Positions 5,359-8,602 of a DNA stretch of 64,000 bases are shown one piece after another. How positions within the stretch are numbered: position 1 is the stretch's first letter; each line of letters starts with the position of its first letter. The notes beneath the pieces are model-generated. The model was not told where the DNA came from. It saw only the letters and a list, made by a program, of their open reading frames with translations, and made no database searches. The translations under genes and the position numbers were made by a program. This DNA comes from Chitinophaga pinensis (GTDB taxonomy: Bacteria > Bacteroidota > Bacteroidia > UKL13-3), in contig CAMBSD010000012.1 of assembly GCA_945870425.1 (NCBI GenBank), positions 2,923 to 66,922 of the forward strand. Direction: 5' to 3'.

Positions 5359-5386
5359 TTTGAAATACATTTTTTTCATACATTTG
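5359..5386 (+). promoter_or_regulatory. Bacteroidota-type promoter for tRNA-Met (-33 TTTG, -7 TAcaTTTG)
   Basis: TTTG at 5359-5362 and a perfect TAnnTTTG at 5379-5386, 16 nt apart and 20 nt upstream of the tRNA 5' end. Confidence 0.5.
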
Positions 5387-5405: not shown

Positions 5406-5479
5406 GGCGGGGTAGCTCAGTTGGTTAGAGCGTAGGATTCATAACCCTAAGGTGGGCAGTTCGATCCTGCTCCCCGCTA
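5406..5479 (+). tRNA. tRNA with CAT anticodon (elongator Met; a lysidine-modified Ile2 cannot be excluded)
   Basis: Hand-folded cloverleaf: acceptor GGCGGGG/CCCCGCT (G1-U72), D arm GCTC-AGTTGGTTA-GAGC, anticodon loop TTCATAA, T arm GGCAG-TTCGATC-CTGCT, discriminator A. No encoded CCA. Confidence 0.9.
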
Positions 5480-5485
5480 CTAAGC

Positions 5486-5520
5486 GAGGCTGACTCTATT
5501 TGAGTTCAGCCTCTTTTTTT
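5486..5520 (+). terminator. rho-independent terminator after the tRNA (copy 1 of 4 of the same hairpin)
   Basis: GAGGCTGAcTC-tattt-GAgtTCAGCCTC followed by T7. Confidence 0.75.
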
Positions 5521-5799
5521 ATGATATTTTCTGTATATATTCTTTTTTCTGAAATCCATAAGAAAACTTATGTGGGTTATACATCCAACCTTATTAATAG
5601 AATGGCCTCGCATAATTCGCTTGCCACTTAGGGATACACTGTTGCTTATAGGCCTTGGAAAGTAATCCACCTAGAATATTTCCAATCAAAAACAGAGGCA
5701 TTAATTAGAGAGAAAGCTCTAAAATCTGGCAAAGGAAGGGAATATATCAAGAATGAAATTATACCATTTATGAAGGAGGTAGGATTCATATCCGCCCAG
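5521..5799 (+). pseudogene. GIY-YIG nuclease (YhbQ/UPF0213-like), copy 1, inactivated
   Basis: Colinear with the intact copy 2, but codon 37 AAG is TAG (5629-5631) and the normal stop is mutated to CAG (5797-5799). Confidence 0.8.
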
Positions 5800-5836
5800 G
5801 CGGAGGTCAGTTCTCCGCCTCTGGAGGACCCGCTAC
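5779..5836 (+). other. degenerate tRNA 3'-half-like segment (copy 1)
   Basis: Shares GTAGGATTCATA, GGCAGTTC (with the upstream G changed to T in this copy) and CCCGCTAC blocks with tRNA positions 5432-5480, but carries insertions (TCCGCCcAGGCGGA, CTCTGGAGGA). No 5' half is present. Confidence 0.7.
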
Positions 5837-5841
5837 CAAGC

Positions 5842-5876
5842 GAGGCTGACTCTATTTGAGTTCAGCCTCTTTTTTT
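5842..5876 (+). terminator. terminator hairpin, copy 2
   Basis: Same GAGGCTGACTC..GAGTTCAGCCTC stem plus a T-run. Confidence 0.7.
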
Positions 5877-6155
5877 ATGATATTTTCTGTATATATTCTT
5901 TATTCTGAAACCCACAAGAAAACTTATGTGGGATACACATCCAATCTTATTAATAGAATCGCCTCGCATAATTCTCTTGCCACTAAGGGATACACTGTTG
6001 CTTATAGACCTTGGAAAGTTATTCATGTAGAATATTTCCAATCAAAAACTGAGGCTTTAATTAGAGAGAAAGCTCTAAAATCTGGCAAAGGAAGGGAATA
6101 TATCAAGAATGAAATTATACCATTTATGAAGGAGGTAGGATTCATATCCGCCTAG
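5877..6155 (+). CDS. small GIY-YIG nuclease family protein (92 aa), the only intact copy
   Basis: ORF 5856..6155; ATG at 5877 gives MIFSVYILYSETHKKTYVGYTSNLINRIASHN...RPWKVIHVEYFQSKTEALIREKALKSGKG, which has the GIY..YIG, R, E and N hallmarks of the UPF0213/YhbQ-type GIY-YIG domain. Confidence 0.8.
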   Translation: MIFSVYILYSETHKKTYVGYTSNLINRIASHNSLATKGYTVAYRPWKVIHVEYFQSKTEALIREKALKSGKGREYIKNEIIPFMKEVGFISA

Positions 6156-6192
6156 GCGGAGGGCAGTTCTCCGCCTCTGGAGGACCCGCTAC
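6135..6192 (+). other. degenerate tRNA 3'-half-like segment (copy 2); overlaps the last codons of the GIY-YIG gene
   Basis: GTAGGATTCATATCCGCCTAGGCGGAGGGCAGTTCTCCGCCTCTGGAGGACCCGCTAC; the C-terminal residues ..EVGFISA and the stop codon are encoded by this segment. Confidence 0.7.
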
Positions 6193-6197
6193 TAAGC

Positions 6198-6232
6198 GAG
6201 GCTGACTCTATTTGAGTTCAGCCTCTTTTTTT
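6198..6232 (+). terminator. terminator hairpin, copy 3
   Basis: Same stem plus a T-run. Confidence 0.7.
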
Positions 6233-6512
6233 ATGATATTTTCTGTTTACATTCTTTTTTCTGAAACCCACAAGAAAACTTATGTGGTATACACGTCCAA
6301 TCTTATTAATAGAATGGCCTCGCATAATTCGCTTGCCACTAAGGGATACACTATAGCTTATAGGCCGTGGAAAGTTATTCATGTAGAATAATTTCCAATC
6401 AAAAACTGAGGCATTAATTAGAGAGAAAGCTCTAAAATCTAGCAAAGGAAGGGAATATATCAAGAATGAAATTATACCATTTATGAAGGAGGTAGGATTC
6501 ATATCCGCCTAG
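6233..6512 (+). pseudogene. GIY-YIG nuclease, copy 3, frameshifted
   Basis: Colinear with copy 2 but has a 1-nt deletion (tatgtggtatac vs tatgtgggatac) and an insertion (gaataatttcc vs gaatatttcc). No long ORF remains on the plus strand. Confidence 0.75.
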
Positions 6513-6549
6513 GCGGAGAGCAGTTCTCCGCCTCAGGAGGACCCGCTAC
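6492..6549 (+). other. degenerate tRNA 3'-half-like segment (copy 3)
   Basis: Same blocks as copies 1 and 2. Confidence 0.7.
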
Positions 6550-6554
6550 TAAGC

Positions 6555-6588
6555 GAGGCTGACTCTATTTGAGTTCAGCCTCTTTTTC
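6555..6588 (+). terminator. terminator hairpin, copy 4 (distal end of the array)
   Basis: Same stem; shorter T-run (T5). Confidence 0.6.
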
Positions 6589-6738: not shown

Positions 6739-7203
6739 ATGAAAAAAATTCAGATTTGCTTATTGCTAGCTTGCTTCATATTACTATTTGCCTGTTCACA
6801 TTATGATAGCCTTCAAAAAAATGGAAAAGTAAGTGATACTAATAAAAAAAGTCATAACAGTGGTCAAGATTGTATGAGTTGTCATGGGAAAGAAATGAGT
6901 GAAGCTGCTAAAGAAGCATGGTGGAATGTGGCTGGGACGGTTTACAATAGTAATGGAGGATTGAATACCAATGCACGTATTGAACTTTGGACGGAACCGA
7001 ATGCCAAAGGTATAAAAATATTGAGTTTGAATACTGATAGAGATGCCAATTTTTATACTGAAAAAGCTGTCAACTTTAATGGAGGTTGCTACCCAATTGC
7101 TATAAGTGGAAATGATACCATGTATATGTCGAGCAAATTCAAAGGAACCGGATGCAACAGCTGCCACAACAATGTTACAACAAGCAAAATTTTTGTTAAC
7201 TAA
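6739..7203 (+). CDS. small lipoprotein with two CxxCH haem-c motifs
   Basis: Lipobox LLFAC at the N-terminus; CMSCH and CNSCH motifs near the two ends of a 154-aa protein. Confidence 0.6.
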   Translation: MKKIQICLLLACFILLFACSHYDSLQKNGKVSDTNKKSHNSGQDCMSCHGKEMSEAAKEAWWNVAGTVYNSNGGLNTNARIELWTEPNAKGIKILSLNTDRDANFYTEKAVNFNGGCYPIAISGNDTMYMSSKFKGTGCNSCHNNVTTSKIFVN

Positions 7204-7222: not shown

Positions 7223-8602
7223 ATGAAAGTAAAAATTACACTGTTATTTTTAGTAGGCTATAATTGTTTACTTGCACAAATCCCTCAAGCATTAAATGAC
7301 AATCTAAACCAAACCTATGATAGCCTATGCAATAAACTAAATTTGAAAGGTTCTTCGGCTGCTATTATTATACCGAATATGGGAACATGGAAGAGAAATT
7401 ACGGTATCTCACATATAGGAAAAAGTACTGATACCGAAATGCTTTTTACACTTGGCAGCAATACAAAAACCTATACTGCAACCGTGATTTTAAAGCTGCA
7501 TCAGATGGGCTTATTAAACTTAAATGATACTATAGGAAAATGGTTTAATAATGTAAAAAATGTTATAGGAAGTATTAAAGTCCAACAACTTCTTAATCAC
7601 ACAAGCGGTATTGCAGGCTATACTGATAACAGTGCTTTATGGACAGCAGTAAATACTAATCTTGGAAAAAATTGGACCATGGAAGAAATCTTGCCCTATA
7701 TAGGCACTCCTTCTTTTGCCCCAGGAAGCAATTGGGCTTATTCAAACTCAAATTTTTTGTTGGCAGGAATTATTATAAAACAAGTAACGGGTAAAACATT
7801 GGCAGATGCCTACCGCGCCTATATTTTCAATCCATGCAATTTATCAAAAACATTCCTATTGGCAGATGAGAGCGCTAATATGGATGTAGCGCATCATTGG
7901 AGTGTAAGGATTGGCAATACTTATTTAACAGATTGGGAAAGTCTAGGTCTAAGTTATATAGCCATGAATTCCGTGGCAAACGCTGCTGGAGGGCTTTACG
8001 CAACTGCTGAAGACAATGCTAAGTTTTATAATGCCTTGTTTAATACAAAAATCATCATTGCTGACAGCATGCTAGGAAAAATGAAAACGGTTAGAAACAT
8101 AGGTGGCGGTGCTGGTTATGGACTGGGTTTGTTTAGTTATTCAAATTTTAATGGAAGAACTGTTTACAGTCATGGAGGTACAAACTTGGGTGGCATAAAT
8201 GAGAATCTTTTTGACCCTCTAAACAATTGTAGCATATCAATCTTATCTAATCAAGATAGTGTTTCAAACAATCAATTATTGACACAAATAGTATTGAATT
8301 TACACAAACGGTTAATTTTGGCTAAGGCTAGTATCGAAGACATAGCCAAAGAATCAAGCGACAATTTTGAAGTATTTCCAAACCCTTCAAATGGTAAATT
8401 TAATTTTAGTTTTAAAGGCTTGAATGATGAAAAAATTGAACAAATTTTGTTATCAGATTTGAATGGTGAAAGCATCCAAAAATTCAGTGCTATCGACAAT
8501 GTTATTCAAATGCAATCAAAGCAAAATGGTGTATACGTATTAATAGTAAAACTAAGCTCTGGAAAAACCATTAGCCAAAAATTGGTATTGATAAATGATT
8601 AG
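7223..8602 (+). CDS. serine hydrolase (class C beta-lactamase / DD-peptidase fold) with a T9SS C-terminal sorting domain
   Basis: SxxK (GSNTKTYT) and YxN (YSNSN) motifs. The C-terminus FEVFPNPSNGKFNFSF...GVYVLIVKL..ISQKLVLIND is typical of a T9SS type A CTD. Confidence 0.75.
   Translation: MKVKITLLFLVGYNCLLAQIPQALNDNLNQTYDSLCNKLNLKGSSAAIIIPNMGTWKRNYGISHIGKSTDTEMLFTLGSNTKTYTATVILKLHQMGLLNLNDTIGKWFNNVKNVIGSIKVQQLLNHTSGIAGYTDNSALWTAVNTNLGKNWTMEEILPYIGTPSFAPGSNWAYSNSNFLLAGIIIKQVTGKTLADAYRAYIFNPCNLSKTFLLADESANMDVAHHWSVRIGNTYLTDWESLGLSYIAMNSVANAAGGLYATAEDNAKFYNALFNTKIIIADSMLGKMKTVRNIGGGAGYGLGLFSYSNFNGRTVYSHGGTNLGGINENLFDPLNNCSISILSNQDSVSNNQLLTQIVLNLHKRLILAKASIEDIAKESSDNFEVFPNPSNGKFNFSFKGLNDEKIEQILLSDLNGESIQKFSAIDNVIQMQSKQNGVYVLIVKLSSGKTISQKLVLIND

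Follow-up and report, generated by a model that had tools for sequence, protein, structure and literature searches.

Why should a small nuclease gene stand in three tandem copies directly behind a tRNA gene, with each copy followed by a defective piece of that same tRNA? This question is raised by 64,000 nucleotides of a Chitinophaga pinensis contig (CAMBSD010000012.1), the whole of which is called the window here, where a tRNA(CAT) gene is followed by an array of cassettes of about 356 bp, each made of a terminator hairpin, a gene of the GIY-YIG nuclease superfamily and a pseudo-tRNA. We favour, with a probability of roughly 0.6, the reading that the cassette is a selfish, integrase-free element that would enter tRNA(CAU) genes by nuclease-initiated, homology-dependent repair, amplify in tandem and decay. 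The anatomy, the linkage to tRNA genes, the occupied and empty sites with their boundaries, the polymorphic copy number and the conservation of fold and active site can be observed directly; the nuclease activity, cut site, read-through expression and repair pathway of the proposed mechanism are our interpretation of the comparative sequence data.

The tRNA gene in the window is complete. ARAGORN calls a tRNA-Met(CAT) on the forward strand at 5406-5480, the Rfam tRNA model scores 60 bits over 5406-5479, and both find this as the single tRNA of the 64 kb. It is of the elongator type (GGCGGGG...GGATTCATAACCC..., Met or Ile2) and carries the invariant stretch TCATAACCCnnAGG at tRNA positions 33-46. 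Tandem Repeats Finder reports one array at 5473-6587 with a period of 356, 3.1 copies, 95% matches and a score of 2018. Within each unit a bulged hairpin with a run of seven T residues (GAGGCTGACTC-TATTT-GAGTTCAGCCTC-T7) is followed by an open reading frame (ORF) whose ATG abuts the T-run, and this by a 58-nt segment that aligns to tRNA positions 27-74. The array stops after a fourth hairpin at 6587, beyond which the sequence is unique. A simple terminator scan of the window did not detect the array hairpins, since they are bulged; RNA folding and the sequence itself recover them, and the whole module folds more stably than shuffled sequence (z = -3.8).

The blocks GTAGGATTCATA, GGCAGTTC and CCCGCTAC, shared with the tRNA, are present in all tRNA-like segments. 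CCCGCTAC starts at 5473, 5829, 6185 and 6542 (intervals of 356, 356 and 357) and forms, together with the terminator, four direct repeats in the window, a direct repeat with a regenerated tRNA being the pattern of integrase-type tRNA sites. The starts of GTAGGATTCATA lie at 5432, 5779, 6135 and 6492, and the first interval is only 347 nt because the pseudo-tRNA exceeds the matching part of the tRNA by 9 nt. A 12-mer that matches the tRNA, correctly ordered and in register, would arise by chance with a probability of about 6e-8 per position, and more than 200 other loci show the same architecture.

All features of the array are on the forward strand and were placed by sequence, alignment of the copies, the ORF list and RNA folding. 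In copy 1, the hairpin and T7 (5486-5520) precede a pseudogene (5521-5796, ATG at 5521) in which AAG has become TAG at codon 37 (5629-5631) and the normal stop is lost; its pseudo-tRNA (5779-5836) comprises tRNA positions 27-37, a first palindrome (pal1, 5791-5804), GGTCAGTTC, a second palindrome (pal2, 5814-5828) and CCCGCTAC. Copy 2 has its hairpin at 5842-5876 and the intact gene of a 92-residue Slx1/UPF0213-type GIY-YIG protein at 5877-6155, supported also by Pfam and a structure model, with the ATG at 5877 and the TAG at 6153-6155. The pseudo-tRNA behind it (6135-6192) contains pal1 at 6147-6160, pal2 at 6170-6184 and the 3' acceptor strand at 6185-6192; the last five codons and the stop of the gene lie inside this pseudo-tRNA and the palindrome loop, the C-terminal codons ..EVGFISA* being supplied by GAGGTAGGATTCATATCCGCCTAG. 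In copy 3 a hairpin at 6198-6232 is followed by a pseudogene (6233-6512, ATG at 6233), frameshifted by an extra A at 6390/6391, and by a pseudo-tRNA (6492-6549) with pal1 at 6504-6517, pal2 at 6527-6541 and CCCGCTAC at 6542-6549. The fourth hairpin, with T5, occupies 6555-6587 and is also covered by the Tandem Repeats Finder interval.

In the window, pal1 reads TCCGCC-TA-GGCGGA and directly follows ..TTCATA, and pal2 is the degenerate TCCGCC-TCT-GGAGGA directly after ..CAGTTC. No further copy of the palindrome or the cassette was found elsewhere in the window. The three pseudo-tRNAs stay below detection by the tRNA model RF00005 even at E-values up to 10, where only 5406-5479 scores. No Rfam family matches the pseudo-tRNA, neither in the window at a permissive E-value nor in 10 related loci at the gathering threshold, while the true tRNAs were matched.

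Much of this had been read from the letters alone in a first-pass annotation, and the complete tRNA(CAT) at 5406-5479, the order of terminator, 92-codon GIY-YIG gene and tRNA 3' half with the ATG directly after the T-run, the single intact copy in the middle, the C-terminus borrowed from the tRNA-like segment and the conserved tRNA blocks all stand. The periods of 356, 356 and 357 that it gave apply to CCCGCTAC but not to GTAGGATTCATA, with its shorter first interval. The hairpin-forming insertions which it described are present; far from being arbitrary, both are copies of a single conserved palindrome.

Three independent metagenome contigs hold the same locus between the same neighbours (L159, L160 and L321; locus numbers of this kind are our own). 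The first matches the window at 97% identity over 14 kb and contains two cassettes; the second, likewise 97% identical, contains at least two, its end lying within the array; and the third, at 88% identity, contains three as well as a 17-nt remnant of another. Thus, copy number is polymorphic at one locus, and the intact gene copy occupies different positions in different contigs. A second palindrome is preserved perfectly as the pal2 of L321 (GTTC|TCCGCC-TCA-GGCGGA|CCCGCTAC), from which it follows that pal2 of the window is a decayed copy of a genuine one. Short tandem repeats are a classic source of mis-assembly, and related contigs end inside cassettes (L001, L160), as would be expected if a single cassette had been wrongly assembled into three. 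Against this, which we regard as extremely improbable, the copies of the window differ by about 5% and carry distinct inactivating mutations, independent assemblies contain two, at least two and three copies, and complete genomes also bear arrays (e.g. CP158861.1 and OY970287.1). The array is not an assembly artefact. A run of about 100 N in the first cassette of L321 (3790-3889) marks a place where the assembler or scaffolder had trouble with the repeat.

The association with tRNA genes extends across the protein family. A protein-only search with one genome per species yielded 36 loci, and in 27 of them a same-strand tRNA ends within about 130 bp upstream of the gene. In Bacteroidota this is tRNA(CAT); Pelagibacterales have tRNA-Glu or tRNA-Arg there, and Patescibacteria tRNA-Gly or tRNA-Asp. 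The second sample, 80 species of Bacteroidota collected via protein alignment and therefore free of a bias for the palindrome, revealed an upstream tRNA in 66 species (81 CAT anticodons and one other), the palindrome TCCGCC-N(1-4)-GGCGGA in 71 and two to five tandem gene copies in 22; the largest array among the sampled loci has five copies (L318). The third search used a pattern of palindrome and T-loop, to which the anticodon does not belong. It returned at least 120 loci, almost all from Bacteroidota, and in the 80 of these numbered L037-L116 all motif-strand tRNAs beside the motif are tRNA(CAT). The Bacteroidota-type motif beside tRNA(CAT) was also seen in two metagenome-assembled genomes labelled Caulobacter sp. 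and Bifidobacteriaceae (L043, L045), which is probably binning contamination and not a true presence in other phyla.

The pseudo-tRNA of the Bacteroidota follows one design. A relic of the tRNA, from the D-loop or the anticodon stem up to ..CATA, is joined to the palindrome and a C, and these to a T-arm and the 3' acceptor strand, so that the palindrome stands in place of tRNA positions 38-48. Two classes of tRNA are used, the initiator (GGGCTCATAACCC) and the elongator type (GGATTCATAACCC) to which the window belongs. All 187 of 187 adjacent CAT tRNAs, initiator and elongator-type together, have TCATAACCCnnAGG at positions 33-46, usually followed by TC, and it is exactly this stretch that the palindrome interrupts in the pseudo-copies. 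The T-arm and acceptor strand of the pseudo-tRNA are identical to those of the local tRNA in 65% of the cases and at least 90% identical in 77%, whereas a same-type tRNA from another locus, taken as a control, reaches 90% in only 37%.

The arms of the palindrome are nearly invariant, with rare symmetric variants (TCAGCC/GGCTGA, TCCGTC/GACGGA and TCCGCT/AGCGGA). A second type of unit is located upstream of the tRNA and consists of a spacer, a complete tRNA 5' half, the palindrome and a T-loop up to GTTCRA; arrays of such units finish in the true tRNA (L048, L082, L086). Elsewhere the palindrome replaces the D-arm (L069, L082) or the T-arm (the lineage of the window, L102, L292). As it can take the place of any of the three arms, the palindrome may behave as a module, and may itself be mobile or templated. 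In the upstream-type pseudo-tRNAs at L069:1-100 and L082:7150-7715, the D-arm is swapped for a hairpin of the same kind (ATCCGCCTCAGGCGGAG and GCTCGCCTGAGGCGAGC, respectively), and at L075:6560-6650 the D-loop bears a different hairpin, CCCGATATCCATCGGG. In Flavobacterium (L157:5899-5914 and other loci) the palindrome is a perfect 14-mer, TCCGCCGCGGCGGA, within which lies CCGCGG, the sequence recognised by the GIY-YIG restriction enzymes Eco29kI and Cfr42I. We treat this match as a likely coincidence, other lineages being without CCGCGG. Two Patescibacteria loci (L013:2865-3001 and L015:2852-2992) have a GC-rich hairpin, GAGCGAGGCTCGCC...GGCGGCCCGC(T/G)C, between the tRNA (Gly or Asp) and the ATG of the GIY-YIG gene, and the 3' arm of this hairpin repeats the final 7-8 nt of the acceptor strand. 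A palindrome and a copied tRNA 3' end seem to be combined here as well, though in another arrangement.

Whether the cassette comes and goes at a fixed site was addressed with the orthologous site of 80 Flavobacterium species, collected via the START_2 protein gene that flanks one cassette locus. This site is empty in 72 species and occupied in eight, with one to four cassettes each, a presence/absence pattern of the homing type. The comparison had been set beforehand as a check on the suggestion of a selfish element, possibly of the homing type, which targets a tRNA gene or rides on it and is no housekeeping nuclease; its outcome, together with the linkage, the copy-number polymorphism and the degradation of about a quarter of the copies, speaks for that suggestion. 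At empty sites the tRNA ends in ..CGCTAC and the native terminator follows. At occupied sites ..CGCTAC is followed by the terminator of the element, the GIY-YIG gene, a pseudo-tRNA (GGATyCATA, the palindrome and the exact tRNA positions 49-74) and only then by the native terminator, which defines the boundaries of the insert. About 26-40 bp of the tRNA 3' end are duplicated in comparison with the empty sites. An insert that brings its own terminator and duplicates the tRNA 3' end therefore has the topology of an att-type (Campbell) insertion.

Among genomes with a 100% identical START_2 protein, one site is empty (L162), two carry one lineage of the element (L161, L163) and one carries another lineage twice (L157). 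The GIY-YIG genes of this site are 74-84% identical and the flanks 86-95%; divergence of the genes beyond that of the flanks and the differing occupancy argue for independent acquisitions. In 131 of 146 cases, a GIY-YIG gene and its nearest relative from another locus share the tRNA class, and there are therefore two largely target-faithful lineages with some switches. About 188 intact ORFs are found among approximately 247 detectable copies, so that about a quarter are degraded. Gene-less mini-units retain TTTTTTATG and the pseudo-tRNA, by which they look like internal-deletion derivatives, and can be amplified themselves (L103, L040). Several Flavobacterium loci have not one but two to three intact tRNA(CAT) genes immediately before the cassettes, at a spacing of about 106 nt (L273:1159-1448, L242, L245, L258, L271); the true tRNA may thus sometimes be amplified as well, as in the case of phage T6 SegB. 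Hypermutation at the centre of the palindrome was considered as a footprint of cleavage, but a mismatch rate of 8.4% in the loop versus 4.5% in the flanks (about 2-fold) is unconvincing.

The protein encoded by the middle copy matches the Pfam family GIY-YIG (PF01541) with 62.6 bits (cut-off 22.6; E-value 4.5e-17) over residues 4-72. The catalytic residues of the superfamily (Y6, Y17, G19, R27, H31, N32 and E64) are invariant in 26 homologues at 50-93% identity. An AlphaFold model with a mean confidence (pLDDT) of 94.9 shows a single GIY-YIG domain and one C-terminal helix. A phmmer search against the PDB returned only EF2693, SLX1, an SLX1 homologue and BH0048 at modest E-values, the top sequence matches being 1ywl, 4xlg and 1zg2 (5e-4 to 7e-3). 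All of the top 13 Foldseek matches are Slx1, UPF0213 (EF2693, BH0048) or At-HIGLE, and not I-TevI, UvrC or restriction enzymes; the Slx1 structures align with TM values of about 0.62-0.66 and, for the better-fitting chains, a root-mean-square deviation of 2.0-2.8 Å over about 72 columns. As modelled, the nuclease is of the Slx1/UPF0213 type and is reduced to the catalytic domain, without a DNA-binding domain of the I-TevI/Seg type, in agreement with the initial YhbQ/UPF0213-like assignment; no sequence-reading domain as in homing enzymes is found in the 92 residues or the single-domain model. The group I intron endonuclease model TIGR01453 reaches 14 bits against a cut-off of 56. NCBIfam, PHROGs and PADLOC offer no meaningful family, and no curated NCBIfam family exists for the protein; in PADLOC, PDC-S14 appears below threshold only. 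Family members have 80-92 amino acids. In lineages like that of the window the ORF runs into the pseudo-tRNA, so that the anticodon relic and the palindrome loop together encode the C-terminus GFISA (GLISA at initiator loci) and the stop. From its fold, the enzyme may cleave branched or hairpin DNA in a structure-specific manner.

From these observations we derive the following model. The cassette consists of its own terminator, a promoterless nuclease gene, presumably expressed weakly and through read-through of transcripts that start at the tRNA, and a pseudo-tRNA that would serve as a homology arm. After insertion, an intact tRNA is followed by the terminator of the element, and the pseudo-tRNA by the native downstream sequence. 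With such a topology the tRNA 3' segment is therefore directly repeated, as after Campbell- or att-type insertion. In a first step, the nuclease would break either the tRNA gene at TCATAACCCnnAGGTC, a stretch common to both target tRNA classes that the pseudo-copy has lost to the palindrome, or else the palindrome, extruded as a hairpin or cruciform. Homology-dependent repair synthesis from an occupied template, with re-annealing at the T-arm and acceptor strand of the pseudo-tRNA and not at those of the tRNA, would then copy one cassette into the broken site. In the synthesis-dependent version of this step, the break would fall at positions 38-48 of the tRNA(CAU) gene and the left end would prime on the donor tRNA; copying would pass through the 3' part of the donor tRNA, the terminator, the nuclease gene, the relic and the palindrome, and the new strand would anneal to the T-arm and acceptor strand of the recipient. 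The predicted outcome is an intact tRNA with the terminator of the element, and a pseudo-tRNA with the local 3' part in front of the native terminator. Repeated rounds, or unequal exchange between the 3' segments, would generate tandem arrays whose redundant copies decay, as copies 1 and 3 of the window may have done, and recombination between the repeats would remove cassettes cleanly. Among the routes considered, this synthesis-dependent repair explains the most features. An 'ends-in' integration after cutting of the palindrome was rejected as the main route, because gap repair from the tRNA would erase the palindrome.

Several points weigh against this model. Its support is comparative anatomy throughout. 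A protein of 80-92 amino acids that comprises the catalytic domain only is without obvious means to read a 16-bp sequence. Since enzymes of the Slx1 type are structure-specific, the choice of target may come only from homology or DNA structure, and the nuclease may act on the palindrome or on secondary structure of the tRNA gene instead. Furthermore, the resident tRNA keeps the putative target, so that the nuclease would continue to cut an essential gene unless its expression were very low. In Pelagibacterales (L018, L020, L021, L024, L028, L033 and others) the gene follows the CCA end of tRNA-Glu(TTC) or tRNA-Arg(TCT) at a distance of 5-25 nt, and no pseudo-tRNA is visible after it in the seven loci that were read; tRNA-Glu is just upstream in 12 loci, seven of which have tRNA-Pro about 2.3 kb further up. 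There, the homologue looks like a fixed resident gene of streamlined genomes. The target-faithful lineages would also be compatible with long vertical residence and loss. No close homologues were found by tblastn in phage and plasmid collections, where only distant ones of chromosomal type occur, and the pseudo-tRNA motif has no match in 2.9 million viral contigs, so that no vector for horizontal transfer has been identified. Finally, no empty site was found in the lineage of the window itself.

Some of these points would suit a resident host nuclease of tRNA-linked or branched-DNA repair or of RNA metabolism, co-transcribed with the tRNA, in which case the array would be a by-product of unequal crossing-over and the patchy distribution a result of loss and homologous exchange. 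Such a gene would fit the adjacency to tRNAs in distant phyla, the apparent fixation without following repeats in Pelagibacterales, the conserved active site with most copies intact and the fidelity of lineages to one tRNA type, and fusions or operons of the clade with COG4123 and TrmH-like methyltransferases hint at nucleic-acid housekeeping (PMC1564403). However, the 72 empty among 80 Flavobacterium sites and the closest relatives that differ in both occupancy and element lineage make a resident gene unlikely. The same design of palindrome and pseudo-tRNA recurs at two unrelated tRNA classes in many neighbourhoods, and a pseudo-copy that matches the local tRNA each time requires repeated new insertions. 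Pseudogenes and gene-less derivatives are common, and a curated protein family, as stated above, is missing.

Another explanation moves the function to the RNA level. The pseudo-tRNA could be a signal for processing or stability of the nuclease mRNA, which the first-pass annotation had offered as its alternative, or, much as in type III toxin-antitoxin systems, a decoy or antitoxin with a CAU loop, its nuclease being a toxin or defence effector with tRNA-Met as the substrate. A terminator does stand between the repeats and the nuclease gene, three to five gene-less pseudo-tRNA units occur beside a single nuclease gene (L048, L082, L086, L103), and the 5' side of the anticodon loop (..CATA) is kept beside a stable hairpin. 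Moreover, the rare symmetric arm variants (TCAGCC/GGCTGA, TCCGTC/GACGGA) preserve pairing, the module folds more stably than shuffled sequence, and the distribution is patchy like that of defence genes. Yet the palindrome is kept as a sequence (TCCGCC/GGCGGA in nearly all copies), which goes beyond pairing alone, and the T-arm and acceptor strand follow the local tRNA at the DNA level. The relic of positions 27-37 decays where it is non-coding, as in Flavobacterium, recognition by RNase P or RNase Z is unexpected for a pseudo-tRNA without a 5' acceptor strand, and in the window the T-arm is destroyed by pal2. With no Rfam match, PADLOC hits below threshold only and the fold of DNA-structure nucleases, we consider an RNA module improbable and the processing signal disfavoured. 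Equally, an adaptive 'genomic accordion' might be imagined, in which the nuclease amplifies the neighbouring tRNA locus under selection, e.g. against anticodon nucleases, and the array of the window is a leftover. SegB amplifies a unit of tRNA-Tyr and segB (PMC13096335), and the Flavobacterium loci with two to three intact tandem tRNA(CAT) genes (L273, L242, L245) resemble it. We think this quite improbable for the cassettes: the window and most loci have a single intact tRNA, the amplified part is a nuclease gene with a dead tRNA fragment and thus leaves the tRNA dosage unraised, and the arrays persist across lineages of 88-97% identity, unlike the unstable repeats of T6. The selfish cassette therefore remains the reading that we prefer.

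The closest precedent for the cassettes of the window is SegB, a free-standing GIY-YIG homing endonuclease of phages T4 and T6 (PMC2330249; PMC13096335). In T6 it lies in a tRNA cluster, cuts inside tRNA genes and causes a 718-bp unit, composed of tRNA-Tyr and a segB truncated at its C-terminus, to be amplified in tandem; amplification needs the nuclease and UvsX/UvsY, and the arrays are unstable (PMC13096335). Its preferred motif, RAWTSGAAC (PMC2330249; PMC13096335), would by our reading be the reverse complement of the T-loop. Both systems have a GIY-YIG gene beside tRNA genes and, on the phage side by experiment and here by proposal, a tandem amplification that requires the nuclease and recombination and takes in both nuclease gene and tRNA sequence, with a junction through microhomology between the two that alters the 3' end of the nuclease gene. 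In contrast, SegB is a phage enzyme of the Seg/I-TevI type with a DNA-binding region, whereas the window, part of a bacterial chromosome, encodes a catalytic domain of 92 residues and the Slx1/UPF0213 type. In T6 the unit holds a full tRNA and raises its dosage, while the window repeats a dead 3' fragment, and the conserved palindrome, the att-like duplication and the presence or absence at fixed sites across a phylum are features of the cassettes. With the Slx1/UPF0213 proteins (YhbQ, EF2693, BH0048) the protein shares the catalytic residues and the small stand-alone size of the bacterial members; it differs in lacking a RING domain or Slx4 partner, and sequence similarity is marginal. A survey of the superfamily in 2006 placed small bacterial proteins in the Slx1 cluster and noted fusions to methyltransferases, and did not note a linkage to tRNA genes (PMC1564403). 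In the searchable literature, that survey included, we found no link of bacterial Slx1/UPF0213 proteins to tRNA genes, pseudo-tRNAs, palindromes or mobility.

Other known systems share single features. Like integrase-dependent islands and prophages in tRNA 3' ends, the cassette regenerates the tRNA, leaves a direct repeat of its 3' segment and can possibly be lost cleanly. However, it measures only about 350 bp, has a single nuclease gene and no recombinase in or near it, its repeat is preceded by the palindrome and the anticodon-arm relic, and tandem arrays are common. As in IS200/IS605-TnpA and REP-RAYT systems, a short palindrome is the sole cis feature common to gene-bearing and gene-less units, and gene-less derivatives are amplified near a single enzyme gene; the enzyme here is GIY-YIG and not an HUH Y1 transposase, and the units are tied to tRNA homology and undispersed. 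An IS200/IS605-like model, with a start at the palindrome, an end at CATA and insertion 3' of CATA, fits the upstream-type units (L048) only. For the array of the window it predicts the wrong order, with the pseudo-tRNA first and a truncated native tRNA last, and it was rejected as a general model. In the type III toxin-antitoxin system ToxIN, too, short tandem repeats, a terminator and the gene of a small nuclease form a single transcription unit. There, RNA repeats precede an endoribonuclease; in the window and at most loci the repeats come after each gene, the nuclease has a different fold, that of a DNA nuclease, and the repeats are tRNA-derived and follow the local tRNA at the DNA level. 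The full-text literature searched, the coverage of which is incomplete, contained no description of the cassettes.

The genes beside the array, which place the organism in Bacteroidota, encode a GH25 lysozyme, a cytochrome-c-like lipoprotein and a beta-lactamase-family protein with a type IX secretion system (T9SS) sorting domain. No tyrosine or serine recombinase is present in the cassette, whose sole ORF is the GIY-YIG gene, or among these listed neighbours. The lipoprotein-like ORF just downstream (6739-7203, 154 amino acids) has CxxCH-type motifs and weak cytochrome c matches, and the beta-lactamase-family gene with the C-terminal sorting domain follows at 7223-8602; the gene order is the same in L159 and L321. 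The consensus of the Bacteroidetes -7 promoter element is TAnnTTTG. A match to it, TACATTTG, lies on the forward strand at 5379-5386, 20 nt upstream of the tRNA, and is the sole one on this strand between 5334 and 6692, so the cassettes are without any; as the motif is not enriched in the whole window (106 found, 104 expected), it is weak evidence. Expression of the nuclease probably depends on read-through of the terminator. In the anticodon stem of the elongator-type tRNA(CAT), the lowest pair is an A-C mismatch (5437/5445, tRNA positions 31/39; UAGGA/CCCUA), which the Rfam alignment flags as a non-standard pair, and the same A-C pair occurs in the corresponding tRNAs of L006, L069 and Flavobacterium (CAGGA/CCCUG). 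A match to the Acido-Lenti-1 RNA (RF01687; 41.6 bits, above the gathering score) at L103:271-315, on a Huijunlia contig, is unrelated to the cassettes.

Taken further, and with somewhat less than even confidence, the loci may represent an undescribed, phylum-wide class of cassettes of about 350 bp, in which a minimal Slx1-type nuclease, a conserved 6+6 palindrome and a homology arm in the form of a pseudo-tRNA act together in homing to tRNA(CAU) genes of the initiator and the elongator type, guided by DNA structure and homology and not by a protein reading-head. The same principle might explain the UPF0213-type nucleases directly 3' of tRNA genes in Pelagibacterales and Patescibacteria. If this is true, the cassettes would be among the smallest autonomous site-specific mobile elements of bacteria, built from a 92-codon gene, a palindrome and a scrap of tRNA, and would use an integrase-free route into tRNA sites. 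They would be a chromosomal counterpart of phage SegB, in which a GIY-YIG nuclease remodels tRNA loci, and would for the first time place the bacterial Slx1/UPF0213 (YhbQ-like) nucleases, so far uncharacterised, in a concrete biological context. Many of the broken assemblies and odd annotations at tRNA-Met loci of Bacteroidota, such as ORFs ending in ...GFISA or ...GLISA and arrays of pseudo-tRNAs, would be accounted for as well. As both the initiator and the elongator tRNA(CAU) are hit, the question arises what this costs the translation machinery. Strains of the Flavobacterium johnsoniae group, with their natural empty and occupied sites, would be a tractable system for the study of such cassettes.

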